Shown piece after piece: positions 8,844 through 62,482 of a DNA stretch of 64,000 nucleotides. Under the pieces are notes generated by a model. The model saw nothing but the letters and a program-made list of their open reading frames with translations, was not told the DNA's origin and searched no databases. Every line of letters starts with the position of its first letter. The first letter of the stretch is position 1. Source of the stretch: Podarcis melisellensis (lineage: Eukaryota); the NCBI GenBank assembly GCA_964234715.1, contig OZ174283.1. The stretch is one strand, 5' to 3'. The translations under genes were made by a program, and so were the position numbers.

Positions 8844-8859
8844 AGTACCTGCTTATTAA

Positions 8860-9218
8860 GGGATGCGGGTGGCGCTGTGGTCTAAACCACTGAGCCTAGG
8901 GCTTGCCAATCAGATGGTCAGCGGTTCAAATCCTTGCGACAGGGTGAGCTCCCGTTGCTCGGTCCCTGCTTCTGCCAACCTAGCAGTTCGAAAGCACATC
9001 AAGTGTAAGTAGATAAATGGGTACCGCTCTGGCGGGAAGGTAAACGGCGTTTCCGTGCGCTGCTAAGGTTCACCAGAAGAGGCTTAGTCATGCTGGCCAC
9101 ATGACCCGGAAGCTGTCTGCAAACAAACGCTGGCTCTTTCGGCCTATAGAGCGAATTGAGCACTGTAACCCCAGAGTCATCCGCGACTGGACCTAACGGT
9201 CAGGGGTCCCTTTACCTT
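8860..9218 (+). mobile_element. Sauria SINE
   Basis: GGGATGCGGGTGGCGCTGTGG head with A/B boxes; (ACCTTT)n tail; 14-bp TSD TACCTGCTTATTAA. Confidence 0.93.
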
Positions 9219-10483
9219 TACCTGCTTATTAACTCACTTGCATTATCAATATAAATATCAACAGTCCCTTTCCAGTAGAAGGTCATCCATAGGAGGAACC
9301 AAGACCAGTTCCATGCCAAAGCTAGGCCTGTATCTAGACCAAAATATGTCAAGATAATCAGTTTCCTTGAAAAGTGCCCTGCACCTTGCACCCCACAAAA
9401 GGAGGTACAGGCCTGCCTCTCTGCTACAGGTAGTTAGCCTACCTAGAAGCTTTGATTACCATAGAAGGGGTTGCTTTGGGGAAGTAAGCCAGAATAAAAG
9501 CGCATGTCAAACACACTTTGGATCTCTTCCTTCTCCTTTGTAAAGGTGCCCACCTTGGACACTGAAGTGTATGTGAGTTAACATACTTTGTTATATAGCT
9601 TTTGTAATAGGGATCCTGTTTTTCTAATAAAAGCTTTTCTTACTTCATTTGATGCATTTGACTGAAATCACTGACAAAATAACTCTGTCTCCTACAACCA
9701 TAACATTTTGGCCTGTTTGGAGTGGTTTTGATGGAGGCCTCTCTTGACAGGAGCTTCATAATTAATTTGGTCCATCAGGTACTCCATAGAGAATACAGCT
9801 GCAAATTCTCCTTCAGTGTGCATATGCACGCACATATACGTGAAAGGCTCTCTGTACTGCAGGTGGTCCAAAATAAGGGAAAGACAGACATTTAAATAAT
9901 AATGTTGTCCTTCCTTGAGCAAGCACAATCTCTTCACATTATTGTCAATACAAGTGGAATTGCTTTCCTATATGTTAAAGTAAATAACTTATATACTTTC
10001 ATTTAAGTATTCACCTCATTTATTAGGATAAAATCTTCTGTCTGGGTTAGCTGGCATGGAGCTTTACTGAAATGCTACTAAGAATTGGTAAGGAATTTGG
10101 CCTTGACTCATGCTAATTTAAACAATATATTCCACATTTTACGGTCCCTTTTTAATAACATTGTTATTAAAGATTCTTTTAAAATAGTATTCTTGTTTTG
10201 AATTAAGCTGGAACAATGGTATACAAACTGTATGTTTTCTTGCATTCTTGGTTCTTTTCTGTGATATGATTCGAAAAGCTGTATTGCACAATTAATTTTT
10301 TGCGTCTCATACAACATAGCCACTGGAAGTATTACAGACTGTACAATATTTTGACTTCAATCAGTTTAATTAATGCCAAGTTGAGTTGGAAAGGGTAAAG
10401 GCACAGTACCTTGATTATCATGTATATATTTTGAACAGGTGCCCATAGATTATATCAGAGGGAGGACAGTTCTTTAATGTTAC

Positions 10484-11250
10484 TGTCACGGCCACCCAGG
10501 ACGGGTCCCAGCTCACAAGAGACCTCACTCCGTTGCAGCTTATTTACAGGAAAAGTTTATTGAAGATTTCTGCTTCTCATACAGTTCAGCATTGTGGCCG
10601 TACGTCTGCCACGTTAGACCGCTGAAGTCCCCTCTGACTCCTCCCCTCTTCCGCACCAACTTAATAGCCTGGCTCTAGACCACCTCTTCCTCTCCTTTCT
10701 TTTCCGCAGGGTCTTCCTGCCCCCCTGGGTTCCCTCTCTCCGTGACTCGCCTGAGGCTGAATCCTCTGCCGCCTCTTCCCCCCTCTTTCTGGCTTTAGGG
10801 CCGGGCTCCTCCCCTGAGCTCTCTCCACTTCCGCGCGCCTCTACGTTTGAACTTGGCGCGCGTACGTTGCTGCTGACCTTTCTTTCGACCGCTACACCAC
10901 CCCCTGTTCTGCTCTCCACCCTTTCCGGCTGAACACCCTGCTCCAACCCCCTCTCTCTGTTCTCTCCTAACCCTGCTCCCTCCGAGAGGCTGACGACTCC
11001 ACCCCCTTTACTCCGTTCCGGCTGAGACGTCTCTTGCTTCCTCTGTCTTCCACTGGGCTCCTCTCCGCTTCTCCCTTCTCCTCCCCTTTGCTTGATTAAG
11101 GTAACCCCCTTTTGAGAATCCTCTGACTCGCTGCTCAGACTCGTGGATTCCCTCAGAATTCCGTCATCTTCTTCCTCATCCTTCTGCCCCTCCTCCCACT
11201 CGCTCTCCGTCTCCTCTGTCATCTCCTCCTCTCTCCCAGAAACCCTGACA
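10484..11250 (-). repeat. 3' LTR (767 bp)
   Basis: Preceded on the minus strand by the PPT; contains AATAAA (plus-strand tttatt, 10556-10561). Confidence 0.97.
10556..10561 (-). terminator. Polyadenylation signal AATAAA in R of the 3' LTR
   Basis: Plus-strand tttatt, about 53 nt after the pol stop; copy at 16283-16288 in the 5' LTR. Confidence 0.75.
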
Positions 11251-14200
11251 TCCATCCCCCCCTCGAAGCCCCCCCTTCCCCCCTCCCGCTCGCCGGGGAC
11301 CGGTTGTGGAAACTGCGGCTCTTCGGGGGTAGGCTCAGGATACAGGTCGTCTACGTCAATGTTCTCTGCTGGCAGTTCTGTGTATGTGTATTCGAAGTCG
11401 GGTTCTTCCCCCAAATGCTTCTCAGTCTCTGCTTCCATCGCTACTTCCTCCGGTGCTGCCCGCCAAGGACCTATCAGCCACCTCTTACGCCATTCCTCCT
11501 CTGGCTGCTCCTCCCACCAATAAGGGGTTTCCGTGTCCACCCCCGAGCACGATCCCCTGGGCGGGCTTGATGCTGGTGTTCTTTCCTCGGGGGAAGAGAA
11601 ACCCCTGAACGTGCTATCTGACAATGTGGGTGTGAAAAGCCAGTCATCAAAGTACTCAGCTGGCATGGGTCTATGTGGGAAAAGTGCATGGAACTCGTCT
11701 TTCAAAAGGGGTTCGTCTAACTCGTAGCCTGGCACCCAACTATTAGCAGCGGCTGGTGTGCCCTCCCTGGCGAGAAAATATTCAACTCCCTCCTCCCCCC
11801 ATCTCGAGTCCAGTATCTCTGTGACCTCGTTAAGAGGTTCTGGTCTTGGCGATTCCCCCCCCTCAGGCGCCCTCCTACGTGGCTCTGGGGGTGCTCCTGA
11901 CTCTTGAAACCTGTGTGGGGTTTTGTAGGGAGTGAGCACCGACCTATGAAAGACCGGGTGCACCCTGGAACCTTCCGGAAGGGCTAGACGAAAAGCCACC
12001 GGATTGATCTTAGCCTCAACTTGATATGGCCCTAGCTGCCTGTGTCCTAACTTCTTCTTGGCCAATGACCTGGCCGGCATCGCGTGGGCTGCTAACCACA
12101 CCCAGTCCCCAACCTGGATGTCCTCTCCCGCCCTCCTGTGCTTATCGGCCTGCACCTTATACGCCTGTTTCGCCAGCTCCAAATGTCTCCGCAGCTCCTC
12201 GTGCACCTCTTGCAACTCCGCTGCAAACTGGTCGGCATCTTGAGGCCCCCCCCCTCCTGGTGCCGCAAATCTCGGGAAGGTTCTGGGATGACGGCCATTG
12301 TTCGCGAAGAAAGGCGTCACCCCGGTGGATGCGTGTTTCGTGTTGTTGTAGGCGAATTCAGCCATCGGTAGATAGTCCACCCACGCCGCAGGTCGCTGGT
12401 TGGCGTAGCACCGCAGGTACTGCTGCATGATCGCGTTGACCCTCTCCGCTTGACCGTTGGTTTGTGGATGCCGCGCCGATGTCAGGTTGATTTTGACGTG
12501 CAAGATGCCCAGAAGCTTTCGCCAGAAAGTGGAAACAAACTGGCGCCCCCTGTCGGACAAGACGGACTGCGGAAGTCCATGCACTCTGAAGACGTGATCG
12601 ATGAAGAGCTTTGCGGTCTGTTCTGCCGTCGCCACCTTGGCACAAGGGATGAAGTGCGCCATCTTGGTGAACAAGTCCACCACCACTAACACCGCCGTCT
12701 TACCTCTGGAGCTGGGCAGGTCTGTAACAAAGTCCAACGCTACCCTCTCCCACGGTTGCTGCGGTGTCTCCAGCGGTTCTAGCAATCCCGCCTGCTTCTG
12801 GTGCACTGGTTTGGACCTCTGGCAGATATCACACCTGGCGACGTAGTCCGCCACCTCTCCTCTCATCTGGGGCCACCAAAAGTCTCTAGCCACCAACTCC
12901 ATCGTCTTCTCTTTGCCGAAATGGCCTGCACTAGGGGCGTCATGCAACTGTTGCAGAACCTTGGCTCGAAGATCGTCGGTGGGCACGTAAAGGGCACCCT
13001 TACGAGTCAAAAGTCCATCATGCAATTGAAACTCATCGTTGCGTCGCGACCCTCCGCGTAGCTCCTCCATCTTAGACTGTGCAAACTGATCCCTTTGCAA
13101 CGCGCGTCGCACCGCGTCCAGGTCGACTGCGATGGTAGCGCACGTCCACGCCTGCGGTGCGAAAATGTGCTTTGCTGCGATTGGAGCTGCTTCCTCCAAG
13201 TATTGCGGCTTTCGGGACAGCGCGTCTGCAATAACATTGGAGTCTCCTGGGATGTATTCTATTTTGAAGTCGAAATCCGCAAAGAACTCCGCCCAGCGCA
13301 TGTGTCGCTGGGTCTGCAACTTAGCCGTCCGCCAATACTCTAAGTTCTTGTGATCCGTGCGGACCTGCACCGTGTGCTTGGCTCCTATTAAGAAGTGTCG
13401 CCACGCTTTGAAAGCTGCATGAATGGCCAACAACTCCCTGTCCCATATGGTATAATTGCGCTCCGTCTTGCTGAGCTTCCGGGAGTAGAACGCACCCGGT
13501 CGCCAGTTGCCTTGTGAATCCTCTTGCAAAAGAACGGCCCCAACCGCTCTATCTGACGCATCGGTCTCTACCCGCATGGGTTTGCCGGGATTCACGTGGA
13601 GCAGCTGCTCTTCGGAGGCGAAAAGACCCTTAAGCGTCCGGAAGGACCGCTCCGCTTGTTCGGTCCAGACGAACTTCTTCTTCTTGGAACTGAGGGTGTC
13701 AGTGATCGCCGCCGTCGCGTTTGCAAAACCTTTAATAAACTTGCGGTAAAAATTGGCAAAGCCGATGAACCTCTGGACCTCTTTCCGATTTCGAGGGCTT
13801 TTCCAGTCCAACAGCGCTTGAACCTTAGCCCTGTCCATGGCCAGTCCCTCGTCGGACAACTTGTAGCCAAGGAAATCAACCTCTCTGACATCAAACTGGC
13901 ACTTTTCCAACTTGGCGTACAGCCTGTGTTCCTTCAGCCTCTGCAGGACCTCTCTCACGTCCTTATCGTGATCCTCCGGCGATTCCGAGAAAATCAGGAT
14001 ATCGTCGAGAAAGCAGACACACTTTTTGTAGAGGAGACCTGCTAGCACGTGGTGCATAAATGCTTGAAAAACGTGGCTGCCATTTTGGAGGCCGAAAGGC
14101 ATGACTCTGTATTCGTATGTGCCCAGAGGGGTGAACATGGCGGTCTTCCACTCATCTCCTTTCCGGATGCGGATGAGATTGTAAGCTCCACGTAGGTCCA

Positions 14201-15134
14201 GCTTGGTGAAAATCTTGCCCCTCCTGACGGTCGCTAAAAGGTCGTCAATCTTGGGCATGGGGAAAGCTTTGGGCTTAGTCAAGCTGTTGATGAACCTGTA
14301 ATCCACTATAAGCCTTTTGTGGGGCGTGTCTTTCTTCTTCACAAAGAAAACAGGGCTGCCTCCCGCTGCTTTAGATTCCTGGATGAAACCGCGCTTGAGG
14401 TTATGGTCTATGAACTCCCGAAGCTCTTGCATTTCGTCCTCCGACATGGAGTACAGCTTGGCAGCAGGCAGTTGCGCCCCTGGCACTAAATCAATCGCGC
14501 AGTCGTAAGGTCTGTGAGGCGGCAACTTGTCAGCTTCCTTCTCACAGAAAACCTCCAAGAATTCCTGGTACTTGTGAGGCACTGTTTGCACCATACCCAG
14601 ATGCAACGGCTGCTCAGCTTCTCCTCCCTGATCGGTCTGAAAGCAATGCTGAGCACAATACGACGAACAAAAGTTGATCTGCCTCTGGTACCACGCAACC
14701 GCGGGACTGTGCCTCTCCAGCCAACTCATGCCTAACACGATGGGTGTGTCCGATAAGTGGGTGACATTGAAACTAATAAGCTCTCGATGGTTGCCAATCT
14801 GCATCATCATGGGAGGGGTTTGCTGCACCACTTGCCCCCCCAGCAACCTCCTGCCGTCCACCGTGACCACGTTCAGAGGCGTCGTTGCAGGCAGGAGCGC
14901 CATGTTGTGCTGCTTAACGAACTGCAGTCCCATGAAGTCGGCGTTGCTTCCCGAATCGATCGTTATTGGAACCTCGAGGAGTCTCCCATCAGGCAACTGG
15001 AGTGTCGCTGTGAGCAGAACTGCCGGTTTGGGAGGCAAAGGGTCCACGCTCTGCAGTGATGCTGGGGGCTTGTCTACAGATCCGCCTGGCTGAGCCCCAG
15101 TAGCTCTGCTTCCAGCCAGGCACTGTCGTTTCCC
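10614..15134 (-). CDS. pol: Pol (protease-RT-RNase H-integrase-chromodomain plus long C-terminal tail), expressed as Gag-Pol by -1 frameshift
   Basis: Protease IDSGS (DSG at 14949-14957); RT LDLRGAY...FLDD (14001-14012); RNase H TDASD...RELLAI...TDHKNL...ADALSR; integrase HHCC, D-D-E (DFVTDLP, SDRG, QAERVN) and GPY (12024-12032); chromodomain-like segment 11688-11834; uninterrupted frame, -1 relative to gag. Confidence 0.96.
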   Translation of the reverse strand, partial: GKRQCLAGSRATGAQPGGSVDKPPASLQSVDPLPPKPAVLLTATLQLPDGRLLEVPITIDSGSNADFMGLQFVKQHNMALLPATTPLNVVTVDGRRLLGGQVVQQTPPMMMQIGNHRELISFNVTHLSDTPIVLGMSWLERHSPAVAWYQRQINFCSSYCAQHCFQTDQGGEAEQPLHLGMVQTVPHKYQEFLEVFCEKEADKLPPHRPYDCAIDLVPGAQLPAAKLYSMSEDEMQELREFIDHNLKRGFIQESKAAGGSPVFFVKKKDTPHKRLIVDYRFINSLTKPKAFPMPKIDDLLATVRRGKIFTKLDLRGAYNLIRIRKGDEWKTAMFTPLGTYEYRVMPFGLQNGSHVFQAFMHHVLAGLLYKKCVCFLDDILIFSESPEDHDKDVREVLQRLKEHRLYAKLEKCQFDVREVDFLGYKLSDEGLAMDRAKVQALLDWKSPRNRKEVQRFIGFANFYRKFIKGFANATAAITDTLSSKKKKFVWTEQAERSFRTLKGLFASEEQLLHVNPGKPMRVETDASDRAVGAVLLQEDSQGNWRPGAFYSRKLSKTERNYTIWDRELLAIHAAFKAWRHFLIGAKHTVQVRTDHKNLEYWRTAKLQTQRHMRWAEFFADFDFKIEYIPGDSNVIADALSRKPQYLEEAAPIAAKHIFAPQAWTCATIAVDLDAVRRALQRDQFAQSKMEELRGGSRRNDEFQLHDGLLTRKGALYVPTDDLRAKVLQQLHDAPSAGHFGKEKTMELVARDFWWPQMRGEVADYVARCDICQRSKPVHQKQAGLLEPLETPQQPWERVALDFVTDLPSSRGKTAVLVVVDLFTKMAHFIPCAKVATAEQTAKLFIDHVFRVHGLPQSVLSDRGRQFVSTFWRKLLGILHVKINLTSARHPQTNGQAERVNAIMQQYLRCYANQRPAAWVDYLPMAEFAYNNTKHASTGVTPFFANNGRHPRTFPRFAAPGGGGPQDADQFAAELQEVHEELRRHLELAKQAYKVQADKHRRAGEDIQVGDWVWLAAHAMPARSLAKKKLGHRQLGPYQVEAKINPVAFRLALPEGSRVHPVFHRSVLTPYKTPHRFQESGAPPEPRRRAPEGGESPRPEPLNEVTEILDSRWGEEGVEYFLAREGTPAAANSWVPGYELDEPLLKDEFHALFPHRPMPAEYFDDWLFTPTLSDSTFRGFSSPEERTPASSPPRGSCSGVDTETPYWWEEQPEEEWRKRWLIGPWRAAPEEVAMEAETEKHLGEEPDFEYTYTELPAENIDVDDLYPEPTPEEPQFPQPVPGEREGGRGGFEGGMDVRVSGREEEMTEETESEWEEGQKDEEEDDGILRESTSLSSESEDSQKGVTLIKQRGGEGRSGEEPSGRQRKQETSQPERSKGGGVVSLSEGAGLGENRERGLEQGVQPERVESRTGGGVAVERKVSSNVRAPSSNVEARGSGESSGEEPGPKARKRGEEAAEDSASGESRREGTQGGRKTLRKRKERKRWSRARLLSWCGRGEESEGTSAV
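11251..11264 (-). other. Polypurine tract GAGGGGGGGATGGA
   Basis: Directly abuts the TG of the 3' LTR on the minus strand. Confidence 0.9.
15062..15134 (-). other. Programmed -1 ribosomal frameshift signal (G GGA AAC plus predicted pseudoknot)
   Basis: Slip heptamer at 15128-15134 is in the gag frame; 6-nt spacer; 9-bp stem GCCUGGCUG/CAGCCAGGC (15113-15121 with 15084-15092); loop CUGGGG can pair with CCCCAG near 15062-15067. Confidence 0.88.
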
Positions 15135-16150
15135 TGAAGCTGCTCCCCTGGTTGCACCTCTGCTGTTACAGTTGCCAGCGCTGCAGTGTGCTTCTGGAGC
15201 CTCTGGGGGCACTCTTTCGCCATATGGTGCGCACTGTCACAGATGTAACACTTCCTGGTTCCTCTAGGAGGCTTCGCTTTGGCTGCACCAGGGACAGGGC
15301 TCTGGGACGGCTTCTGAGCCCTAGCACCACCAATCTCCATTGGCTCCTCGCTGTCCTTCCCCATTGGCGAGGGGTGCGCACGGCTGAAGTCCCTGTGCAC
15401 AAAAGGGAGAGTCCTTGCTTGCGCACGCGCTTGGGGCCCGTCCTCCTCGTGCCACGGACGCCCCTCATGTCGAATTCCAATAGCTAAAGCCCGGTGCACC
15501 ACGTCTTCTAGGGTCTGGGGTCTGTCCCCCCTAGCGATCTCATCCTTGATGGGGGGGCTCAATCCCTCCCAAAAAAGATCTCTGACCGGTTTACTGTCCT
15601 TTGGCCAATCTAAGGCGGTGAGCAACGCAAAAAATTTAGAGTGGTATTGGCGCACAGTCGCTTTCCCCTGCCTCAGCCCGTGCATTTGACGGCGCGCAAT
15701 GTCCACATCCACAGAGGATTGAAAACAAGAATCCATCGCTTTGATGAACGCAGTTGAATCGCGACGGGCCGGTCCATCTTCGCGCCACAAATTGCGTAGC
15801 CAAGCCCTGGCCTCCCCATGCAGGTGCGAAACAATGAACCCCACTTTCTCCTCCTCATCTTTAAAATCGTGACGGAGTAAGTGCAGTGCATATACAACGT
15901 CCGCTCTGAAATTGGGATAGTCTTGCAAGTTGCCATTAAAATGCGGAACTAGGGCACCCCCCCTCCGTCCAAGCGCAATGCCCTCCGCTCTGGATCCTGG
16001 GGCCCCCGCCTTGTCCGCGCGCTCCCACCTTGCCTGCAAATCCTGGCACGTCTTCTCCAAGTCGTCATTCTTCTTCTGCGAAGCAATGACTGCCGATGTG
16101 AGAGCGGTAACCTGATTCCGCAATGCAACCAGCTGCTCCTCAGCGCTCAT
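15074..16150 (-). CDS. gag: Gag polyprotein (358 aa from the first ATG after the PBS)
   Basis: ATG at 16150 in the context gcagccATG; N-terminal coiled-coil-like segment; Ty3/PEG10-type capsid motifs (FNGN, KVGFIVSHLHGEARAW, LRQG, EPMEIG); CCHC knuckle CYICDSAHHMAKEC. The ORF-track start at 16255 lies inside the LTR. Confidence 0.95.
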   Translation of the reverse strand: MSAEEQLVALRNQVTALTSAVIASQKKNDDLEKTCQDLQARWERADKAGAPGSRAEGIALGRRGGALVPHFNGNLQDYPNFRADVVYALHLLRHDFKDEEEKVGFIVSHLHGEARAWLRNLWREDGPARRDSTAFIKAMDSCFQSSVDVDIARRQMHGLRQGKATVRQYHSKFFALLTALDWPKDSKPVRDLFWEGLSPPIKDEIARGDRPQTLEDVVHRALAIGIRHEGRPWHEEDGPQARAQARTLPFVHRDFSRAHPSPMGKDSEEPMEIGGARAQKPSQSPVPGAAKAKPPRGTRKCYICDSAHHMAKECPQRLQKHTAALATVTAEVQPGEQLQGNDSAWLEAELLGLSQADL

Positions 16151-16197: not shown

Positions 16198-16208
16198 AGA
16201 GGGGACTT
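16198..16208 (-). promoter_or_regulatory. Primer binding site of self-priming type (AAGTCCCCTCT)
   Basis: Begins 2 nt after the 5' LTR; lacks the TGG start of a tRNA PBS; exact 11-nt complement of AGAGGGGACTT at 16362-16352 in the LTR. Confidence 0.85.
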
Positions 16209-16210
16209 AC

Positions 16211-16977
16211 TGTCACGGCCACCCAGGACGGGTCCCAGCTCACAAGAGACCTCACTCCGTTGCAGCTTATTTACAGGAAAAGTTTATTGAAGATTTCTGC
16301 TTCTCATACAGTTCAGCATTGTGGCCGTACGTCTGCCACGTTAGACCGCTGAAGTCCCCTCTGACTCCTCCCCTCTTCCGCACCAACTTAATAGCCTGGC
16401 TCTAGACCACCTCTTCCTCTCCTTTCTTTTCCGCAGGGTCTTCCTGCCCCCCTGGGTTCCCTCTCTCCGTGACTCGCCTGAGGCTGAATCCTCTGCCGCC
16501 TCTTCCCCCCTCTTTCTGGCTTTAGGGCCGGGCTCCTCCCCTGAGCTCTCTCCACTTCCGCGCGCCTCTACGTTTGAACTTGGCGCGCGTACGTTGCTGC
16601 TGACCTTTCTTTCGACCGCTACACCACCCCCTGTTCTGCTCTCCACCCTTTCCGGCTGAACACCCTGCTCCAACCCCCTCTCTCTGTTCTCTCCTAACCC
16701 TGCTCCCTCCGAGAGGCTGACGACTCCACCCCCTTTACTCCGTTCCGGCTGAGACGTCTCTTGCTTCCTCTGTCTTCCACTGGGCTCCTCTCCGCTTCTC
16801 CCTTCTCCTCCCCTTTGCTTGATTAAGGTAACCCCCTTTTGAGAATCCTCTGACTCGCTGCTCAGACTCGTGGATTCCCTCAGAATTCCGTCATCTTCTT
16901 CCTCATCCTTCTGCCCCTCCTCCCACTCGCTCTCCGTCTCCTCTGTCATCTCCTCCTCTCTCCCAGAAACCCTGACA
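16211..16977 (-). repeat. 5' LTR (767 bp)
   Basis: Direct repeat of 10484-11250 at offset 5727, no mismatch seen by eye; lies upstream of gag on the minus strand. Confidence 0.97.
16388..16393 (-). promoter_or_regulatory. TATA-like box (TATTAA) of the LTR promoter; predicted TSS about 16362
   Basis: AT-rich hexamer in a purine/GC-rich U3; starts 31 nt upstream of the predicted self-primer 5' end. Confidence 0.7.
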
Positions 16978-17739
16978 GTTACCTTGTCATATGATACCAA
17001 TTATTTTAAGTGTGTGTGACATATAGTTGACACACTGTAAATGGGATGTTGCCTCTCAGCAGGTTTCATTCCTAAACCTGCTGAACTTAAAAGGGGGCGG
17101 GGGGACCTTGTATAGTGAAGAACAATATGCCATAAAAATATTTCCATTCATTAAAGGTATAATCCATTAAAATCATGGTAAGATTTGCCATTTACTTCAG
17201 TGGAATTTGAGTTGCAACCTTACAGTGCAGTCTTCTGTGTTTTACACAGGCGTGCCTTTAAATTCAATGTGATTTATAACTAGGTAAATGCATGTAACTG
17301 GTTGAAATATTTTAGTTTTCCATAATCTGAGCTAATTAGAAAAAGAGAAGCATAAGCTTCAAACGAGGCTCATTGAAACTACATACACATATGTAAATGT
17401 TTGCAACACTTACACAAAGAAATCTTAAATAATCTACAGTTATATTTCTTTTTAATTTGATACTTCAAGCACGCCTCAGGAAAGAATACAGGAAATGTAG
17501 GCAGAAAATCCAGAAGGAATGACCTTTTGATAAAATGAATGTTTACATCAATGCAACATGGATTTTGCAGAGTTAATACTCAGACTTATCAATTAGAAAG
17601 TGTACACTGACTCTCTCTCTCCTCTCTCTCTCTTTAATTGCTTCTAAACACGGAAGGAAGATATCTAGACTGTAATGGTGTAATGGGGTTTAAACATTAC
17701 ACAACTTTGTCAGACTGAAATTATATATATATATATATA

Positions 17740-42490: not shown

Positions 42491-43535
42491 AAACTAAATT
42501 AAATAGATTTTTACTAAGGTGAGTTTGATTAATGATTATTATTTTATATTTTTTATTATCTGTTGTCAACTGAGCAAATAAAAATAACAGAGGAGGAAGG
42601 AAACCATTAGTAATAGCCACCAGTGTCATGTGTCTTTAAAGAGAACATGTGTAGCTATATATATAAAACATCTGTAACCATATACATGCCTGCTGGCTTG
42701 GTGCCCCCTGCCTATAATTATAAATAACAATAAGAGGAAAGAATGCTTCTGTGACCAGCATCAGCTGCAGTGCATGCATGTTGACTAAGGTGGTGATGCT
42801 GGGCCTCTTTGGTTGCTGCCACATCATTTGCTGCTCTCGGGGTGGTCCTTTGCCCTGGCCCATGTGGCCCTAGACTTTGACCCAGAGGTCCAGCTCTAGC
42901 TGCTCTTCAGGGAATGATTTAGGTTTTTAAGAATATTTAGCAAGAAGGTAGTAACAAAACAGACTGAAAAGAGTAAAAAATATAGATAGAGACACCAGAA
43001 CTGAAATATATGGTCATATGTATTATGTGACAACATGTATTATGATGATGATATTACCAAATTACAACTTAATTTTGCACATTGTTCAGTTATACATTCC
43101 TTCCCCCAATGAGAAAAGTGGTAGTTCCCACCATTAACAGGCAGTAGCAGGCAGAGGAAAAGTTCACGAGTCTATCATTGTCTGTATGACCCAATTATCT
43201 AGTCATTTGAATTTGCCCTCCTAGACAGGTATGCTTTAAAAAAAAATGCTCTATAGGCTGCTGTCATGTAAAAAATGCTTTAAAATAAATGTGCATTCTT
43301 TGTAGTGTGCCTTGTCTTTGTGGGTACCAGGACTTTTCTACCCCTAGGCAGCATGAAATATCCTGCCTCAGGTAGCTGTTTTCAAGGTACTAGTTTCAGA
43401 TACACTGTTTGTCTTACAGAAATAGTCTCAACATTTCTGCAACACTGATAAGCATGACATTAAACTAGAGAGTTTGGAGAGAGACATTTTCCACAGTTCA
43501 AAGTTTATTGTTAATTGGGTAAATAAGAGGTTACC

Positions 43536-44390
43536 TACTGGCCAAAATATTGGGAAATAATTGAAAAAGTTGGAAACAATTGGAGGTTGCAGAGTATGGA
43601 AAAACTAAAAAACAAGGTGCGAGATTGGTTGCACTATGCACAAATTCAGGAGGTTTTTAAAGGGGATAAAAAGGTTGGGTTCCAGGTGGAAAAATCGAAA
43701 CTAGAGACAGAATTGTTAGAAGCAAAAAATAAATTACTTTCGAGAATGTATAATTTGCTGCTTAAATGGAATACACAGGATGAGACAGTAAAATCCGCCA
43801 TGATAAAGTGGGCGCAGGATATTGGGCACAACATCATGTTTGAGGACTGGGAAAGGTTATGGAACACCGGAATGAAATTTACGGCATGTAGTGCCTTGAA
43901 GGAAAATATTATGAAAATGGTATACCGGTGGTACATGACCCCAGTCAAGCTGGCTAAGATATATCACCTGTCGGATAATAAATGTTGGAAATGTAAGGAG
44001 GCGGAAGGGACATTCTTTCACCTCTGGTGGACTTGCCCAAAAGTGAAGGCCTTCTGGGAGATGATTTACAATGAGTTAAAAAAGGTATTTAGATATACCT
44101 TACCTAAGAAACCGGAGGCCTTTCTCCTGGGCATTGTGGACCAGAAAGTGTTAAAGAAGGATAGAACTTTCTTTATGTATGCTACTACAGCAGCAAGCAT
44201 TTTGATTGCAAAGCATTGGAAGACACAAGATTTACCCACGCTGGAGGAATGGCAGGCGCAGTTGTTGGACTATATGGAACTGGCTGAAATGACTGGCAGA
44301 ATCCGAGACTTGGGAGAAGAAACAATGGAAGAGGACTGGAAAAAATTTAAGGACTATCTGCAAAAACATTATAAGCTGTACGAATGTTAA
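43536..44390 (+). pseudogene. L1 ORF2 C-terminal fragment (zinc-binding region, no RT core)
   Basis: The 267-aa ORF-track protein extends 17 codons upstream to the truncation point; motifs WYMTP, CWKCKEAEGTFFHLWWTCPKVKAFW, IAKHWK. Confidence 0.88.
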
Positions 44391-45176: not shown

Positions 45177-46208
45177 AGTTAAATTAATACCGATGAGTGC
45201 AGCTTAACATTGATCCACAAAGACAAGGGTTGTACTAGATAAGAATTAGCATAAATTGGGGAAGCTTTGTAACATATAAACATGGGCCTCCAGGGCTTTC
45301 GGTTTCAGATTGTGTGATTTATCAGTTAAGTTATCTGAACAGAGAAGTGTTGGAATTAGATTTGCAGCCAAACCACTTGAGTCACTGTTGCCTTTGAACT
45401 CAACTGGAATATAACACAGCTGTTGCTTTTGTAGCTCTTCACAGTAGGTTTCCTGTGCTGACAAGCTGAACAACTTGTTTTCACCCACAGTGTTCAGAAA
45501 CTTGTAGTAACTTCAGTAGTAGAAAAATTAAATGTGAAAGTAGTGTCATTTAACTTGTGATACTACAGGCCCACATTATCACTGCAGGTTTGGTTTTTTT
45601 AAGCAGAAGTGTGACTTTGCCTGTGCACTTCCGCTTTCCCACTGGAGCTCTTAAGACTAGTTTTGTGTTGATGCTATGCGATAGGACAGGTCGCTTCAAA
45701 AGTATGTAATAAGCTATCGCTGGTTCTTTTTGAGATGTCAGATACCTACTTTATTATAGCAAGAAAATGACAGTCAATTTCAATCAGAATTTATTGCGAA
45801 CATTAAGAGCTGGAAGGACTTTGGCTAATCATTATAATGTCCCCAACAAATGGTAAATGAAAGCATAAGGAAATTGAGTTAACACAAGTTAAAAGTTCAC
45901 ATTCTTACTGAATTATATTAGAAGACCCATGACTTAATTAAATTATCTGAAACTGCTGGTTTCACTTCTCTTATAACAGCACATTTGTATGATAGTTTCC
46001 TGGTAGATGCATAATAGCTTGGTTTATGTACAAAGAATAGATAATGTAGGCTGCAATCCTTCATCCAGTTACCTGAGAGTATGCTCTGTTGAAGCCAATA
46101 CAAGTTACTTTTGAGTTAACATGTATAGGATCATACTGTTAAATCAATTATATAGCTTTCTTCTAAATTTTCGTACGCACAGACCCATATGCACAATTAT
46201 TTTCTATA

Positions 46209-46464
46209 CAGTGGTACCTCGGGATGTGAACGGGATTCATTCTGGAGCCCCGTTCGCATCCCGAACGGAATGCAAGACGCGACAGCGTGTCTGCGTGTGT
46301 GCAGGTCGCGTTTCACCGCTTCCGCCCATGTGTGTGACGTCATTTTGACTGCGCAAGCGCAAGCGGCGAAACCCGGAAGTAACGCGCTCTGTTACTTCCG
46401 GGTTGCCGCGGAGCGCAACCCGAAAATACTTATCCTGAAGTGTATTTATCCCGAGGTATGACTG
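46209..46464. mobile_element. Tc1/mariner-superfamily MITE, related TIRs, different core
   Basis: CAGTGGTACCTCGGGAT...ATCCCGAGGTATGACTG; TA flanks; CpG-rich. Confidence 0.85.
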
Positions 46465-46747
46465 TATTATTTTTGTCCTTGGAGCATTTGCTCCAGACTT
46501 ATCATAATTGAAACTCTGCTCACAGAACATTCCCACTGGAGAAAGGGAGAAGGCATTTTCTCTCTGAACTTTCTTTTGGAGGATTGGGGTTTCTTTGGTT
46601 CATCTTTGCCATTGTACTTTTAATATTTTCCCCAGAATGGCTGGGGAAACCCACCCAGATGGGTGGGGTAAAAATAATAAATTATTATTATTATTATTCC
46701 TCTCTATAGCAGCATCTTTGCTTTTGCTGTTTGCTATAAGCAGTACA

Positions 46748-47109
46748 GGGACGCGGGTGGCGCTGTGGTCTAAACCACTGAGCCTTGGGCTTGCCCGTCA
46801 GAAGGTTGGTGGTTCGAATCCCCGCAACGGGGTGAGCTCCCGTTGCTTGGTCTCAGCTCCTGCCAACCTAGCAGTTCGAAAGCACATCAAATTGTAAGTA
46901 GATAAATAGGTACCGCTCCGGCGGGAAGTTGAACAGCATTTCCGTGCGCTGCTCTGGTTTCACCAGAGCGGCTTAGTCATGCTGGCCACATGACCCGGAA
47001 AAACTGTCTGTGGACAAACGCCAGATCCCTTGGACAGTAAAGCAAGATGAGCACCGCAACCCCAGAGTCGTTCGCGACTGGACTTAACTGTCAGGGGTCC
47101 CTTTACCTT
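46748..47109 (+). mobile_element. Sauria SINE
   Basis: Full head-to-tail match to the 8860 copy; TSD TATAAGCAGTA. Confidence 0.93.
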
Positions 47110-49677
47110 TATAAGCAGTAGAAGCCAGAAAGACTGCCTGACATTTCTCAATGGAGTGTTCTAAAGTTGCCCAATGTGTCAGTGTCTATCTGTGAAGGTA
47201 AGCTGATCTGGAACTGGCCAGTGCATGTCTCAGGACACCCTTGAAGCTGGCTGCGTAGTCATCAAAGAAAGAGTATGATACCAGTGTAACATAGGTAATG
47301 TCCTTTTTGTTACCACAACAAAAAGACTGATGCTCCCAAAGTGCTACCTTTGTGGTAAGGCCTCATATACAAGATTCTCCACTGATACAGTAAGAGTATG
47401 TTTAAAAATTGATTTGACAACTTTCAACTGTCTTTGCTGTCATTTGAGCACTGACATTTCAATAGGATAATATTGTGGAAAGACAAAAGGTAGTAAAGAA
47501 ATAAGCAGCCCCAGTAGCTGCTGTTAAAATTATTTTAAAATCATAGAAAATAAAAATTTTAACCTGGATAGTGTAATTCATTTCATGTTCCTGTAATCTA
47601 AGGTTGCCATGTTCATGGCTGGGGCAGCCCAGTCATATGGGTTGGGTACAAGTAATAATAATAATATTTTGATTTATAATACTTTGCATTCCTGTGTCAT
47701 AACACTGGAATAATTTTTCAGCACTTCCCCCAAAATGCATTAATATAATAAATATATTGCTTAAGAGTCATTTAAAAGCTTCATATGATACAACCATAAA
47801 TTTTGAGTTTTCATTTCTAATTATTTACATTGAAACTGTGGAAGTAACTGTACAGTACAGAAAAGCCTTTTGCTTTTATATAGTCACTAGGAAAACAATT
47901 CTCCAACAAGCTGTAAAATGATATGATTCTAAGCAGTACAGCTACAATCCTACTTTGTCAAAAGGTGAGGTTATATTATGTTTTACTTCCTGGGGAAAAT
48001 ATGAGTAAGCAGAAAAGCAATGTCATCCCCTTTCATCTAACACTTTAAAGTTTAAATGAAGTTATTTTAGAGACCAGCAGAAAAGTAACCTTATTCAGCT
48101 CTAGAAAGCAGTCTGGAACATAAATTTATAATAAAATAGCTTTGCCATTTTTATTTCCTTTTTCTTTTTGGCCATGCTGGTATCTTAACAGTGCTTTCTT
48201 AAGACTAACCCTTATTTAGAAATAAAATAAATGTGTTTTATAAAGAAGTGTGGGCCCCCCACAGACTTGTTTCTAGCAGCTTGTTGCAAAAAAACCCAAA
48301 CCCCACAAAACCTTTTTTCTAACTGCCGGTAAGAAACTAATTCTCATATGAGATGGAATGTTCTGTCCAATCCTGTTTCACAGTAGCTTTGAGTGCTTGA
48401 CTGTACCAGAAAAGAAGGGTATTATTTGATTGTTCATTGTTACCAGCAGAAGGCTTTCAATTGTCTTTAAATAATAATTGTCACAAAACCTTCTATAGCG
48501 TAGTTTCCATTTCGCTTTGATCAGTGTGTATGTAGTGTGTAACATCTGTAATAGTCAATCTTGCAGCCCAATCCTGTGCATGTTTGTTAAACCCCATGAA
48601 GTTCTACAATACTTTCAGATAAGCAGGTATAGCATTGTGGACCTTGATCTCTTGTGTGTTGTGGTCATGGATGTAAAATGATTTCCAGATAGACAAATAG
48701 AATAATGGCAGTCTTATTCTCATTGTGTGTCATTTGAATCGTTCTCGAATAATATTTCTGACACCTTTAAAGAACCAGATTGCAGCAAATGGCTTGGTTT
48801 AAATTCTTATTTTGATATGCACATGCAAATAATCTTGATGCAAAAGTAAAGAATAGGTGGACGGAACAAATAAATTCTTATAGTCTATGGATTACTTACT
48901 GTTATGGTTCAATTTGTTGCATCATATAATGTTTACACTCCCCCCCTAAATATTTATAGTTACATTTTATCAAATAACATTTTTCCATTCCTACATGTTT
49001 ATTCTGCCTTCAGAAAATACAGGGGGAAATGCAAAGAACTTGCTTTTAAAGTATGTGAATATATAAGTAGATTTATTTGTTGATGTGGGACCGCTTTCAT
49101 ATAAAATTTTGAGACACTTGTACATCCTTCCCATGAAGACAGATAAAATCTCATAAATTCTTCAATCAAAACTGAGCAAAGGTTAAAGTCTACGAAAATA
49201 GACAATATTTATGAAAGCCCATAAACAACTTAAAAAACCTTGAGCAACATAAAAATCGCCAGAGCCAATATATAACAGGGTTGGAATTTTCTGGAATAAC
49301 ATTAATTTCTAAGCATTTTGAAAATCTGAATAAAAGTTATTTAAATTCATTAAAGTGACCCATGGAGGCAAAGGGGGTGAAGGAGATAAATGTACATTTT
49401 TATGGGTTCTGCAGTGCTTTGTGGTACTCTGGTACACATACACAAGCAATTGTCCTTTACAGCTTTGCTATAAAGCTGTTGTTTGATTAAGAGGCGTATA
49501 TACCATCTCTTCATTCTCAAGTGTACTTCAAGCTATTCACATTTTCACTGCCGTAATTGTATTGAAATTAATGGTGTTACACAGGGACAACGAAACAAAA
49601 CAAAAAGAAGGAGATATGCAGTGGTGGTCTAGATCCTAAAACGGTATGAAATTGTCTGGCTTTCAACTGCTATTTTT

Positions 49678-58370: not shown

Positions 58371-58649
58371 TTTCTGTATTGTATTGATATGTATAATTAT
58401 CTTCCTGGTGTCCAAAATAATATTTCTTCAAAACATTTTTTTTAAGATTGAAAGGCAAAGAGACATGAAACTGCAGTTTATGACAGTGATTACACATACA
58501 TGCCCACAATCTAAAGATTGTGAATATTAAACATAAGTTTATTTTGGATTATTGGTTCCCAGTCCAAACTGAATGGAAGCTTGTTTCTTCTTGAATGGCC
58601 ATCTGGTTCCTGATTCCGTGTTTTAGAGAAACATAAAAAACTGCAAGGT

Positions 58650-58991
58650 AGACCTGGGTGGCACTGTGGGTTAAACCAATCTTCTGCCGATCAGAACGTC
58701 AATGGTTCGTATCCCCGCGACGGGGTGAGCTCCCGTTGCTCTGTCCCAGCTCCTGCCAACCTAGCAGTTCGAAAGCACATCAAAGTGCAAGTAGATAAAT
58801 AGGTACCGTTCCGGTGGAAAGGTAAACTGCGTTTCTGTGCACTGCTCTGGTTTGCCAGAAGTGGCTTAATCATGCTGGCCACATGACCCGGAAGCTGTAC
58901 GCCGGCTCCCTCAGCCAGTAAAGTGAGATGAGCACCGCAATTCCAGAGTCGGCCATGACTGGACCTAATGGTCAGGGGTCCCTTTACCTTT
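58650..58991 (+). mobile_element. Sauria SINE
   Basis: Same body and GGGGTCCCTTTACCTTT tail; small deletion in the head. Confidence 0.9.
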
Positions 58992-61900
58992 AAAGTCTGT
59001 AAATGAAAGGGTGGGATAAAGGTGCATGGCAACCAGTTAGAGATCTCCCCTAAGAAAGGCTGTTGCTGACAAAGCCTGGAGATACCAGTAAAAATCAGGG
59101 CTTCTTCCACCCAGCTTCTGGGCATTTCAGTTCATTACAGTAAGAAGAAGAGAACAGAAGCACACACGATACAGAATGCGGCTCAGAGTTCCCAACAGAA
59201 GCAGCAGTGGTAGCAGTTTCCATTGGAAGTTGCAGTAAGCAATATCAAGAGAAGAAAGTGGGAGGAAATTATGACCTCAAACCAGGCTTCAACCCAGGCA
59301 AGCCAACTCCTAGGGGCAGAGGTGTTTTCGGACCCCTCAGTATTGGCTGGCAGGGGGCTGGGCCCCCTCAATGTTGAGGAGGCCAAGCGGAGAGCCGGGC
59401 ACAACGTGGTTCAGTGGCTGGTTGCTCCTGAGTGCAAGAGACAAAGCCACCCTGCAACGGACTCTGCACTCGGCCTCCTCCTAGTGATGCCGCATTGCAT
59501 GCCAGGAACATGACATCACACATGCGCAATGTGCGCTAGGCCCACTCAATCTTAGGTGCAAGATGGTGCCTCTTCTTGAATCTATATGGGGTGTGCAGGG
59601 GAAAGCGAGGATCAGTCAATGTATGTTATATGGAAACACTTCTCCAGTGCCCTCTCCTTTTTACCAGGGGGAAAGAGTGATGAGGGAGCAAGGATAAGGG
59701 ATTTGACCTGTTCTATAAACAATTTGAGTATACACAATGTTAGATAAATTATAAAGGATCACATTTTGAACAGCAGAATTGCATGTGATGTGAAGCATTA
59801 TTATTTTAAAAAAGAGATGAGGCTTCAGTGCTCTATGCATTATCTGGGCGTAAGTCCCATCAAAATCAGTGGGATTTACTAGTGAAAAAAACATGCATAG
59901 GATTCCACTCCACGGCTTCTAATAAGTATTGGCACTTACAGCTAGCTTTTAAAAACAAAACAAAACACTGCAGTTCATTTACATTTTCTTTTAAAAGTTT
60001 GGCAGTGAGTAACAGAGGTACAAGTTCTCTGGGCATCTGATAACCTAGAGAAAAATGCTGTAGGAAAAAGAATGGGATTTTATTTATTATCACTGTATCT
60101 AAGGCTATTTGAGGTCTCTTGTCCACTCACAACCATAATTATATCTCATACAGAGCCAATTGTTTCTCTGGAAGAATAATTACAACAGTGAATAATGGGT
60201 TAATATAAAACATAAAGTAGAGTGTTTAGTGGAGGAATTTGAGAACAGATAAGAAATATAGCATCCAACATATTCTTCCATAATTGTACAGTCCTCCAGA
60301 GATAATGGATATCATTATCAACGGCGCCTGCCCTAGGAAACTTGGCAAGGTTATGATTGTTTGTTACAGCTTTGGTTATATTAACATACACATTAATATT
60401 TATAAATATTTGATGTCATGTTAATTTTTCATATAAGATGATTTATGTAATGTTGCTGTGCTCTGTTAGAGGGCATTTACTATAGGCTTCAAAAGGGAAC
60501 TGGATTGATGCATGTTCTTTAAGGGGACTTGACTGTATATTACTGTACATACACACGATGAATCATTCCAGGGGAAAGTGATTCAAAAATAAATTATCTG
60601 AATTGTAGAAAAGCTCCATTAACATTTTAAATAAAACATAATGAAAAAGACCATACTAAAGTATTTCATATGTCTTATTAAATAGCAGGCATTTCTTGTC
60701 AACGACTGAAAGTTTTTATCTGAATAATGTATTCCAAATATTTTATTCCCCTTTTATTTTTTTCCTTTGGTCCACATCCTAAATTAAATTATGATCAAGT
60801 GTGGCTAATTCATATTATGGTGTGATACATAAGTATAAATAGCATATCACCTATTGTTTGAAGTGAATTACTTTCCTCTTTGTATTTTACAAGCAGAATA
60901 ATGTTCACCTCTGTATGTCTCCATGAACCTAAAATGTAGGACTAGAATTGTGATTATTCATAAAACACTTGATGAGTTCAGGTAGTACTACTAGATGAAG
61001 GCTTTCATACAAATATGTGTAGATATTTTAGTTGTCCCATCCCTAACACTCAGGATGGTATCAATTTCCAAAGGATGCTAGAGGTTGGAAGAGATCTGTT
61101 GCTTCAGCAATGAAGCAACTTTGACTGGAAGCTCTTACAGGAATTGGAGAAACTACTAGCTCAGAGTTAGGCTAGGTAAAAAGAGGGTGTTACTCATACT
61201 CATTTCGACTGAACAATTTGTGCATATGTGCTCAGCAGCCAGTCCTGAGCCATGTATCGCCTTGCATAAATCTCTGATTTGCAAATTGCCCACTAATGCA
61301 ATACCAGCATACATGCTGCTTGCTGTCTTACTTGGCCACCCTTAATCAGTGTTGGCTACAGTTCCTAATGGATGGGGGGCATCCTTGGAATTATGCTGAG
61401 TCAAAGATTGTTACTGCCCCTCTTCCCCATTTGCAGAAGCCATTAACGTCCTCTGACAATTGGGTCCATCCTCAGTGCTGGAACATAAAGGATGTATCAT
61501 CCAGTCAGGCCCTGACAATGACAGTGTGGCTGGGTACAAACCCACTCACTCACATCTTCTAATAACCAAAAGCCAACTGGAACGACAATGCAGCATGGGG
61601 GAGAGAGGAGAATGGTGTGCCACCACAGCAAATACTTGAGGACGCCAGCCAGGTTCTACTTATTAGAAGAGGTGAGTGACTGTAGAAAGACACACTTGCT
61701 GCATCCGTGGGATTGCTGACAAATGAAACCAGCTGGGGATTATGAAACTGGAGAGTCACTGAGCATGTCAGCATCAGAGCAGGGTGTTATTTGCTCCCCC
61801 AACCAACCAACCTGCCACTCAGGGCACAAGCCCCCTCTCCCGCCTCCTTCAGAAACTAGCCTAACCAGCACAATATACACAGCTAGATGTAAAATCCTCC

Positions 61901-62270
61901 CCAGCCATTAGTCACACACACCTTTTTATTTTTATTTTCATATTCTTGTGGTGAGGATTTGGAGAAATTTCTTTTATTTTATTGGTGGGACAGTTAATGT
62001 GATAAATATGAGGTGGCAGGGTGTTTGAAAAAGTGGTTAAAAAGCTTTATCACTCCTTCAGGTAGTGGCAAAACAACAATAAGAAGCAACAGAGACTGAT
62101 GTTGTTCCTCAGTGAGAATGTCCCAATACGAATGGGACAACTTTGTTTCATTCCTTCTGGGCTGTTCTCAGTGATGAGTTCTGTGTTGCAATTGTTGAAC
62201 ACTGTATGACCTTTGTTGTTAATTGCAGCTCTGCTGCCACTTAAAGTGGTGACAAAAGTTTTTCCTAGTA

Positions 62271-62482
62271 CAGTGGTACCTCGGGTTAAGAACTTAATTC
62301 GTTCTGGAGGTCCGTTCTAAACCTGAAACTGTTCTTAATCCGAGGTACCACTTTACCTAATGGGGCCTCCTGCTGCCACTGCACCACCGCTGCACGATTT
62401 CTGTTCTCATCCTGAAGCAAAGTTCTTAACCCAAGGTACTATTTCTGCTAACCTGAAGCATCTGTAACCCGAGGTACCACTG
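62271..62482. mobile_element. Tc1/mariner-superfamily MITE (same family as 981-1214)
   Basis: Same TIRs and internal sequence; TA TSD. Confidence 0.9.

Follow-up and report, generated by a model that had tools for sequence, protein, structure and literature searches.

A self-priming chromovirus in a lizard genome whose pol frame runs through the U3 of its 3' LTR

The closest described relatives, in layout, of the retrotransposon reported here come from plants. In CRM group A (CRM, Beetle), pol crosses the polypurine tract (PPT) and the 3' LTR encodes the C-terminus of integrase, which is regarded as a targeting domain (PMC3059260, PMC3605345, PMC6317226), and in the beet elements Bingo1-4 and Bingo7, which lie outside the CRM clade, the ORF extends into the LTR with the chromodomain upstream of the PPT (PMC3605345). 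Protein coding also overlaps U3 promoter DNA in lentiviral nef and MMTV sag (PMC2664473). The preliminary description of our lizard element had Ty3/gypsy pol normally ending around the PPT; that read-through of this kind lacks precedent in the group is contradicted by the available text of the papers on CRM group A and Bingo, both of which extend pol into the 3' LTR (PMC3059260, PMC3605345). For vertebrates, the portions available to us of the literature on Sushi-type elements contained no mention of a U3-encoded integrase tail, and the top-ranked results of our search of openly accessible articles included no paper on such a tail in a vertebrate chromovirus.

The element lies in a stretch of 64,000 nucleotides (the window) from Podarcis melisellensis and, judged by its sequence, is an intact, young, self-priming Ty3/gypsy chromovirus, with all of its features on the minus strand. 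Sequence comparison delimited a 5' LTR (16211..16977) and a 3' LTR (10484..11250) of the TG...CA type, 767 bp each and with 0 mismatches over the 766 nt compared, flanked by the TSD GTAAC (16978..16982 at the 5' side, 10479..10483 at the 3' side). Between the LTRs, ORF and domain searches found gag (15074..16150; 358 aa, Ty3 capsid and zinc knuckle), and ORF and homology analyses a pol frame of 1540 codons (10614..15236) with the order PR-RT-RNase H-IN-SH3-chromodomain-tail. The element thus has gag followed by PR-RT-RH-IN, the LTR pair, the TSD and the PPT by which Ty3/gypsy elements are recognized, and the nearest solved relative is Ty3 Gag-Pol (E 6e-137). The sequence GGGAAAC in the gag/pol overlap (15128..15134) is presumably a slippery heptamer, at which a -1 frameshift is predicted. 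Its place among the chromoviruses follows, at the level of domain content, from a chromodomain after the GPY/F (SH3) module at the integrase C-terminus: SH3_Tf2-1 scored above the Pfam cutoff in the window's pol, and the match to Chromo (11688..11831), weak in this copy and below the cutoff (E 0.0095; omega there 0.10), was above it in the relatives P0009, P0010 and P0011. The PBS (16198..16208) is complementary to a self-primer in R (10635-10625), with which it forms an 11-bp helix in the MFE fold, an arrangement that would place the element with the self-priming V-clade or Tf1-sushi group. All 11 pairs were present in 19 family-A 5' LTRs, and primer and PBS covary across families C, E, F and G.

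The main claim of the preliminary description, that the pol frame runs on through the PPT and the whole of U3, was borne out: the minus strand is open from 15236 to 10614, where a TAA (10616-10614) ends it about 19 nt inside R, the start of which is predicted from the position of the self-primer. The ATG at 11255, PKARKR (10799-10782), RKTLRKRKERKR (10718-10683), the TATA-like CTATTAAG (10667-10660) and the self-primer are also where they had been placed. Two details needed correction: the long read-through into the 3' LTR comprises 211 full codons rather than about 212, and AATAAA (10561-10556) does follow the stop, but about 50 nt downstream of it and not immediately. Of the 13 stop triplets in U3 up to the pol stop, the pol frame has 0 and the other two frames 8 and 5, as had been counted. 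The T content of U3 is 11%, and the chance of an open pol frame was 0.0003 by mononucleotide shuffle, 0.0055 under a Markov model of order 1 and 0.013 under one of order 2; the order-2 model gave 0.037 when any of the frames was allowed to be the open one. The same U3 stretch is open in the 5' LTR, without the ATG and without pol upstream. By itself, then, the window's copy is only moderately significant, and the case rests on comparative data.

Of 124 full LTRs from the window's family, A, and its four sister families, B to E, 118 have the pol stop at a common position, and TAA, TAG and TGA are all used at that column; because the queries that retrieved B to E included the U3 peptide, copies with an open frame are favoured among them. 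The preliminary description had proposed to test whether indels in U3 come in multiples of three and whether dN/dS is below 1. Gap runs in U3 were multiples of 3 in 14 of 15 cases, compared with 2 of 14 beyond the stop, and a codon model of 14 natural copies gave a U3 omega of 0.30 (2dlnL 142). By block, the same model gave 0.18 for an acidic segment that includes SSESEDSQ (11106..11249), 0.58 for a variable middle with in-frame indels of 3-93 bp (10890..11105), 0.21 for a basic segment with PKARKR and RKTLRKRKERKRW (10677..10889) and 0.25 for the codons across the TATA-like box and self-primer (10617..10676), as compared with 0.09-0.10 for SH3 and chromodomain, and 0.72 for the acidic, Trp-rich linker before the PPT (11265..11591), which is open and weakly constrained; the value for the end of the IN core was set aside, since one copy there has an upstream part that is off frame. 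In sequence terms, strong constraint is present in only two blocks of the U3 peptide, and its middle tolerates deletions. NG86 omega for the pol frame of U3 was 0.22-0.28 in 10 of 10 family pairs, versus 1.21-1.61 and 0.70-0.97 for the two other frames, and third codon positions were more divergent than first or second in every pair. With substitutions permuted (four pairs), 2.8-6.5 U3 stops were expected (P(0) 0.001-0.05); the linker by itself gives weak evidence of stop avoidance (P 0.03-0.2 for each pair). Promoter DNA (GCGCGCCAAGTTCAAA, the TATA-like box and the self-primer) may account for part of the conservation, and in one U3 block the first, second and third codon positions are all conserved.

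Family A copies are more than 99% identical and therefore count as a single observation. Out-of-frame LTR deletions were found in 2 of 111 of them. For variants within families, N/S was 0.97 when shared against 1.48 for singletons (p 0.01), which points towards selection too, but singletons are biased by score-ranked sampling and we give the comparison no weight. The spread of a 93-bp in-frame deletion was considered as a sign of selection and rejected: about three different backgrounds carry it, private SNPs are common to only two of four copies, and since it recurs through microhomology at a 10-bp repeat it says little about selection.

Two more distant lineages, F and G, were found through integrase homology, at pol identities of about 60% and 50%, respectively. 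Families A to G form a single clade in an RT-IN tree (support 1.0; outgroups unnamed), and in both F and G, pol passes into the LTR in the phase seen in A-E and has a basic block at its end. Omega was 0.44 in F (p 2e-6) and 0.68 in G, where it was not significant (p 0.12); 15 of 60 near-full-length G copies from a score-ranked list had frames stopping at the LTR edge, and at LTR nt 5 there is an in-frame ATG particular to G. The U3 peptides of A-E gave no significant alignment to those of F (hhalign probability 2.4%) or G (below 1%), so only the layout is common to these lineages. When the U3 profiles of P0010 and P0011 were compared as well, no match was significant apart from a weak one of F to P0010 (50%). 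A Pfam search of the U3 peptide returned no match, and an ESM Atlas search with a relative's U3 peptide no usable one. Peptide length ranges from about 100 to 233 aa among lineages, and the hydrophobic fraction in A-E is 0.09-0.14. The preliminary description had spoken of a selected, LTR-encoded, disordered nuclear domain; indels, omega, the three stop codons and the distant lineages uphold "selected", and low complexity stands as well, while "nuclear" and "disordered" come from composition only. An AlphaFold model (4-sequence alignment, mean pLDDT 33.8) was rejected as evidence of disorder, the SH3 and chromodomain having failed in it too.

From these comparisons we think it very probable that the U3 peptide is translated and under selection, and likely, if less securely so, that it is fused to integrase. 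The full mechanism, in which the selected, U3-encoded end of pol would be an integrase tail for nuclear import and chromatin tethering, is one towards which the sequences incline us only slightly. Genomic RNA would begin at the self-primer in R and so contain U3 at the 3' end alone; Gag-Pol would be produced by a -1 frameshift at GGGAAAC, with translation continuing across the PPT and the whole of U3 until the stop in R is reached; and the protease would free an integrase with chromodomain, TIM-like motif, linker and U3 peptide still joined. The last 211 residues of pol would be the end of a long, probably disordered tail, its terminal basic cluster serving as an NLS and/or a nucleosome or DNA anchor, and its acidic, Ser-rich block as a phosphorylatable counter-charge or a histone-binding segment.

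The preliminary description had left a choice between an integrase tail and a stand-alone product of 213 aa, and our comparisons favour the tail. Nef and sag are expressed from spliced mRNA, and an accessory protein of the lizard element, one that counters silencing or acts on the LTR promoter, for instance, could come from the ATG at 11255 on spliced or internally started RNA, or be cut off by the element's protease. We regard such a protein as unlikely, though it has points in its favour: the ATG is present in nearly all A-E junctions, the LTR of G contains an in-frame ATG of its own, the fusion is broken in many G copies, the PBS starts with GTAAGT, which resembles a splice donor, and the retroviral genes are separate U3 genes in the available text of PMC2664473. 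Against it, the ATG lies within the PPT and spacer (11251..11264, in frame as EGGMD), itself constrained as DNA, and is not conserved: F has GTG there, Met is missing from both P0010 and P0011 (the latter a viper protein), and G uses a different ATG, so that comparison of A to G revealed no conserved start codon of the nef/sag kind. In addition, the fast-evolving linker before the PPT is nevertheless open and in phase, and the junction keeps phase in all 29 D copies, in 21 of the 23 A copies that could be scored, in 7 of 11 copies of C and in 5 of 6 of E, which argues for fusion. No splice-like joint to the PPT region was seen among the 15 joints listed out of 22, weak evidence given contigs of uncertain kind. 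Acceptor-like motifs before the PPT are too common to carry weight. Release by the protease may yet occur.

A fused and selected tail could also act on the particle, through RNA chaperoning, condensates or Gag-Pol packaging by its charged blocks. The block-charged peptide, its low hydrophobicity and lineage-variable length, and the lack of positional bias of young family-A copies along chromosomes would all suit such a role, which we rate a little lower even than a separate protein; the tail follows a chromodomain and a TIM-like motif, an HMGN core ends it in one lineage, and the CR motif, which has been studied more than any other pol tail encoded in an LTR, has a targeting role according to the source as available (PMC3059260). 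It is improbable that only openness of the frame matters (a short 3' UTR might guard the RNA from decay), or that promoter elements fix the DNA, with the residues incidental. The omega of linker (0.72) and middle (0.58), the tolerated in-frame deletions, the failure of A-E, F and G peptides to align and the block conserved at all codon positions fit that explanation, yet omega in the acidic and basic blocks is low in the pol frame specifically, with an excess of third-position changes, and a frame-blind constraint on DNA would favour no frame; most ribosomes, moreover, would be expected to stop at gag and leave a long 3' UTR anyway. Chance, i.e., a T-poor, purine-rich strand with few stops and one young master open by luck, would be in keeping with the order-2 Markov values and with family A as one observation, but it is largely refuted, and scarcely credible, given that seven families, the most distant at about 50% pol identity, agree in phase, and given the in-frame indels and the frame-specific omega.

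If the U3 peptide is indeed an integrase tail, what that tail might dock to is hinted at by two motifs. A TIM, as defined in the accessible parts of the sources, is a helix, an acidic or phosphorylatable linker of 8-16 residues and FxGF (PMC9987994, PMC8022399), and a candidate of this pattern, EYFDDWLF-TPTLSDST-FRGF (11598..11657), follows the chromodomain in the window; the helix-linker-FxGF pattern occurs in families A, C, D, E and F as well as in P0010, and FxGF was found in the tail in 3 of 148 search matches screened (P0009, P0010 and the unrelated-looking P0067). The HMGN/Dsup nucleosome-binding motif is given as RRSARLSA (PMC12487698, in part), and RRSARL occurs exactly in the basic block of 15 of 16 G U3 sequences and is absent from A-F, the window's peptide having RWSRARL (KRWSRARL) in its place. 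Together these are hints of chromatin tethering. The more specific idea, that a lineage of squamate self-priming chromoviruses overprinted the whole of U3 with an integrase tail carrying host-like docking motifs for chromatin, namely a LEDGF/HRP2-type TIM and an LTR-encoded basic anchor, with an exact HMGN core in one lineage, is tentative and may well be wrong; if true, retrotransposons would have arrived by a path of their own at the tethering for which lentiviruses use LEDGF, and the plant CR motif would have an animal parallel.

Little is known of nuclear entry and target choice in vertebrate chromoviruses, and the basic block, RRSARL and the FxGF motif are short, testable peptides from a currently amplifying family. 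An LTR promoter that includes a TATA-like box and self-primer evolves here under protein-coding constraint in lineages whose pol identity is no more than 50-60%. Since LTRs count as non-coding in annotation pipelines, U3-encoded tails are truncated or missed. In these lizard genomes, an open frame of at least 200 codons is also present in many 5' and solo LTRs, where host transcripts could capture it.

The comparison with known systems, made from the available parts of the sources, brings out both sides. Sushi elements have, like ours, a vertebrate host, a chromodomain and a self-priming PBS, and their att motifs TGTYANR...CNTNACA fit the LTR ends exactly in B-E, whereas A ends CGTGACA. Nef and sag are separate genes and no extension of pol, and nef covers about half of U3, while the lizard frame extends over both the TATA-like box and the presumed transcription start (PMC2664473). 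The motif that resembles the TIM/IBM of LEDGF and HRP2 partners shares an aromatic helix-like segment, an S/T or acidic linker and FxGF, directly behind the chromodomain in A-F (two copies in F), but it lies upstream of the LTR, outside U3, and in A-E the linker is rich in S/T, not in D/E, and at or below 8-16 residues. With HMGN and Dsup, the likeness is that the U3 peptide of G ends PRRSARL in an arginine-rich, low-complexity tail, unlike the KRWSRARL of the window's family (PMC12487698). No targeting to centromeres or chromosome ends was seen for family A, in an assembly from which satellite regions may be absent: in 100 of 111 matches, those on large contigs other than C19, positions were uniform (KS p 0.33), and 7 of these 100 lay within 2 Mb of an end, against 4.7% expected (p 0.24). 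Bingo is a plant element with a tRNA-Met PBS, and the available text states neither the length nor the function of its extension, nor any test for selection on it (PMC3605345). CRM group A agrees with the lizard element in the extension of pol into the 3' LTR; it differs in that its CR motif replaces the chromodomain, which the lizard element keeps about 150 codons upstream of a tail with no Pfam match, in its tRNA-Met primer, where the lizard PBS pairs with its own R, and in being centromeric, where young lizard copies are evenly spread. The architecture is thus already known from plants, and the lizard element adds a variant to it, not a category.

The minus strand of the window carries an intact LTR retrotransposon (16977-10484), with a flanking GTAAC duplication and paired 767-bp LTRs that have zero mismatches between them. 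Its gag (16150-15074, minus) overlaps a pol frame of 1540 codons (15236-10614, minus) encoding protease, RT, RNase H, integrase, an SH3 module and a weak chromodomain match, which then extends ~350 codons beyond the chromodomain, across the PPT and through 211 codons of the 3' LTR. The preliminary description had reported that pol reads through U3 without a stop, and this was correct, the pol frame containing 0 stops and the other two 8 and 5. The chance of this particular frame being open was 0.0003 to 0.013 under nulls respecting the T-poor composition, and the window sequence by itself provided only modest evidence for a coding U3. The PBS (16208-16198, minus) has an 11-base pairing with the LTR (16362-16352) in the predicted fold, and primer and PBS covary between families; by these features the element is of the self-priming Tf1/sushi type, as characterized in PMC6317226. 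The location of the self-primer in the 3' LTR predicts a transcription start at 10635, which would place the pol stop ~19 nt inside the predicted R. Just past the 5' LTR, overlapping the PBS, is a splice-donor-like GTAAGT (16205-16210, minus), of which GTAAG is retained in families C and E and absent from F and G. Elsewhere in the window there is an open stretch of 287 codons (43527-44390, plus), presumably resembling the zinc-knuckle C terminus of a LINE ORF2, and two sets of dispersed repeats, one (977-1086, 46205-46265, 62267-62376) starting with CAGTGGTACCTC, which we take to resemble Tc1/mariner-type ends, and the other at 8859-9220, 46747-47111 and 58640-58992.

The element's own family (A) is very young, its best 40 LTR matches all being >99% identical. 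A ranking by similarity to integrase comprised 111 copies, and 95 of them had the full 1540-codon frame. All 16 shorter copies were inspected, with deletion lengths taken from BLAST coordinates: six had a break in the pol core, two a single-base indel immediately before the PPT, six in-frame LTR deletions (93 bp in four, 48 and 270 bp) and two out-of-frame LTR deletions (509 and 319 bp). Because of this youth, and because the 93-bp deletion is bounded by 10-bp repeats and arose independently on ~3 backgrounds, family A alone was unable to test selection. One copy (L006/L007, G000:C5:42836910-42838771) has both LTRs intact and its internal sequence almost wholly deleted.

Searches of the same genome with diverged tails produced four sister families, B-E, which differ from A by 23-44% in U3 DNA; since the queries contained U3, there was a bias toward open copies. 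The selection proposed in the preliminary description was borne out in these relatives. The shared stop, a TAA, TAG or TGA depending on the family, was reached in 118 of 124 full-length LTRs of A-E (for some elements both LTRs are counted, and partial matches are excluded). When 98 distinct LTRs were aligned as DNA, 14/15 gap runs in the U3 frame were multiples of three versus 2/14 after the stop, although not all runs are independent events. Pairwise dN/dS in the pol frame was 0.22-0.28 in all 10 family pairs, against 0.70-1.61 in the other frames, and a codon model of 14 natural copies gave 0.30 for U3 (2dlnL 142), with 0.18, 0.58, 0.21 and 0.25 for its successive acidic, middle, basic and TATA/R blocks, against 0.09-0.10 in the SH3 module and chromodomain; in the linker ahead of the PPT it was 0.72. 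At the DNA level, GCGCGCCAA (10853-10861 and 16580-16588, minus) is conserved across families A-E and looks like a possible E2F site. Tail homologues bearing organism names come from Podarcis, which makes a lizard the host.

When 1.84 billion representatives were searched with a profile, relatives were matched through integrase, independent of U3. In P0009, P0010 and a protein of the viper Vipera latastei (P0011), the tail that follows the chromodomain contains a glycine run resembling a PPT, then an acidic part, and it finishes in a basic cluster; in P0010 and P0011 the LTR position of the tail is deduced from the peptide. With P0009 and P0011 as leads, two further genomic lineages were recovered. 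In F (~60% RT-IN identity, 412-bp LTR), the junction was readable in seven elements; all seven cross into the LTR in the same phase, and six of these stop right after the self-primer; omega was 0.44 (p 2e-6), indels were 21 bp within U3 and 1-2 bp after the stop, and P. muralis proteins have the same end. In G (~50% pol identity), six of 12 elements, chosen deliberately to include both kinds, were fused in the same phase, and in the other six the G run had slipped and the frame stopped at the edge of the LTR; in a score-ranked match list 45/60 near-full-length frames were fused and 15/60 ended at the LTR edge; omega was 0.68, not significant. Families A-G form one clade, and 14 outgroup proteins end ~75-135 residues past the SH3 module. 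The three lineages (A-E, F, G) gave no significant alignment of their U3 peptides; they have in common the phase and a basic end, with a strongly acidic start in A-E and G. On these sequence comparisons, the U3-encoded tail is real, under selection and common to a squamate chromovirus clade.

Family G (L147-L152, e.g., G000:C9:8033300-8042200) is a second young family, whose U3 frame ends PRRSARLKA before the TATA-like box and which has a pyrimidine-rich tandem array without AATAAA after the self-primer. Other G copies (L141-L146) have a slipped G run before the PPT, with pol ending at the LTR edge. At the 3' junctions of further copies (L107, L110, L123, L040 and L084), several length changes in the G run before the PPT add up to 0 or 3 bases, so that the frame is preserved; L032, L038 and L039 are simply frame-shifted. 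The insertions L018, L046 and L095, and L020, L023 and L064, are bordered by telomere-type (TTAGGG/CCCTAA) repeats or (AAT)n microsatellites. Gene models P0012, P0015 and P0173, which join the clade's integrase pieces to a vomeronasal receptor, TM9SF2 or a phospholipid ATPase, are probably annotation artefacts.

The U3 peptide is probably a fused integrase tail. Although the linker is almost unconstrained in its evolution, it keeps an open frame and the phase, for which the simplest explanation is that translation has to pass through it on the way to U3. This argues against a separate protein with its own start, as does the replacement of the PPT ATG by GTG in family F. A peptide released by protease is a less likely alternative. 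The stand-alone product from that ATG, which the preliminary description had allowed for, is therefore disfavoured, but is kept alive by family G, which has broken fusions and its own in-frame ATG at LTR nt 5. For the fused tail, a predicted -1 frameshift at GGGAAAC (15134-15128) would yield Gag-Pol, and the integrase derived from it would carry a tail that is long and charged. In its basic block, PKARKR and RKTLRKRKERKRW look like a putative nuclear localisation signal, and the U3 peptide had no match in Pfam or Atlas. The basic block of G contains PRRSARL; RRSARL is the core through which HMGN proteins bind the acidic patch of the nucleosome, according to PMC12487698. A helix-linker-FxGF motif directly follows the chromodomain (11598-11657, minus; also in L155, L158, P0010 and P0170-P0172), occurring in families A-F, with two copies in F and none in G, and hints at a candidate LEDGF/HRP2-binding motif by its match to the TIM of LEDGF/HRP2 partners, as described in PMC9987994 and PMC8022399. 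Both motifs are hints toward chromatin; that these host-like docking motifs are functional is less likely than not. No positional bias of young copies was seen along the chromosomes of this assembly, so any tether would not be centromere-specific as far as the assembly shows. Unlike young A, matches of the older families C-F seemed concentrated on contig C19 and near contig ends, an impression rather than a count; at a guess, this contig could be a sex chromosome that does not recombine.

The element's layout has precedents in plants. According to PMC3059260 and PMC3605345, pol of CRM group A runs into the 3' LTR, where the CR motif is encoded, and several beet Bingo elements also read through into it. 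The window element shares this crossing, but is unlike CRM in its chromodomain, primer and distribution. In host, chromodomain and self-priming it is like the vertebrate V-clade as described in PMC2774666 and PMC3601003, and no report of a U3-encoded tail in that clade was found among the papers listed by the literature searches. The extension of pol into the LTR is a known architecture from plants, and its squamate chromovirus form is new as far as those papers show.
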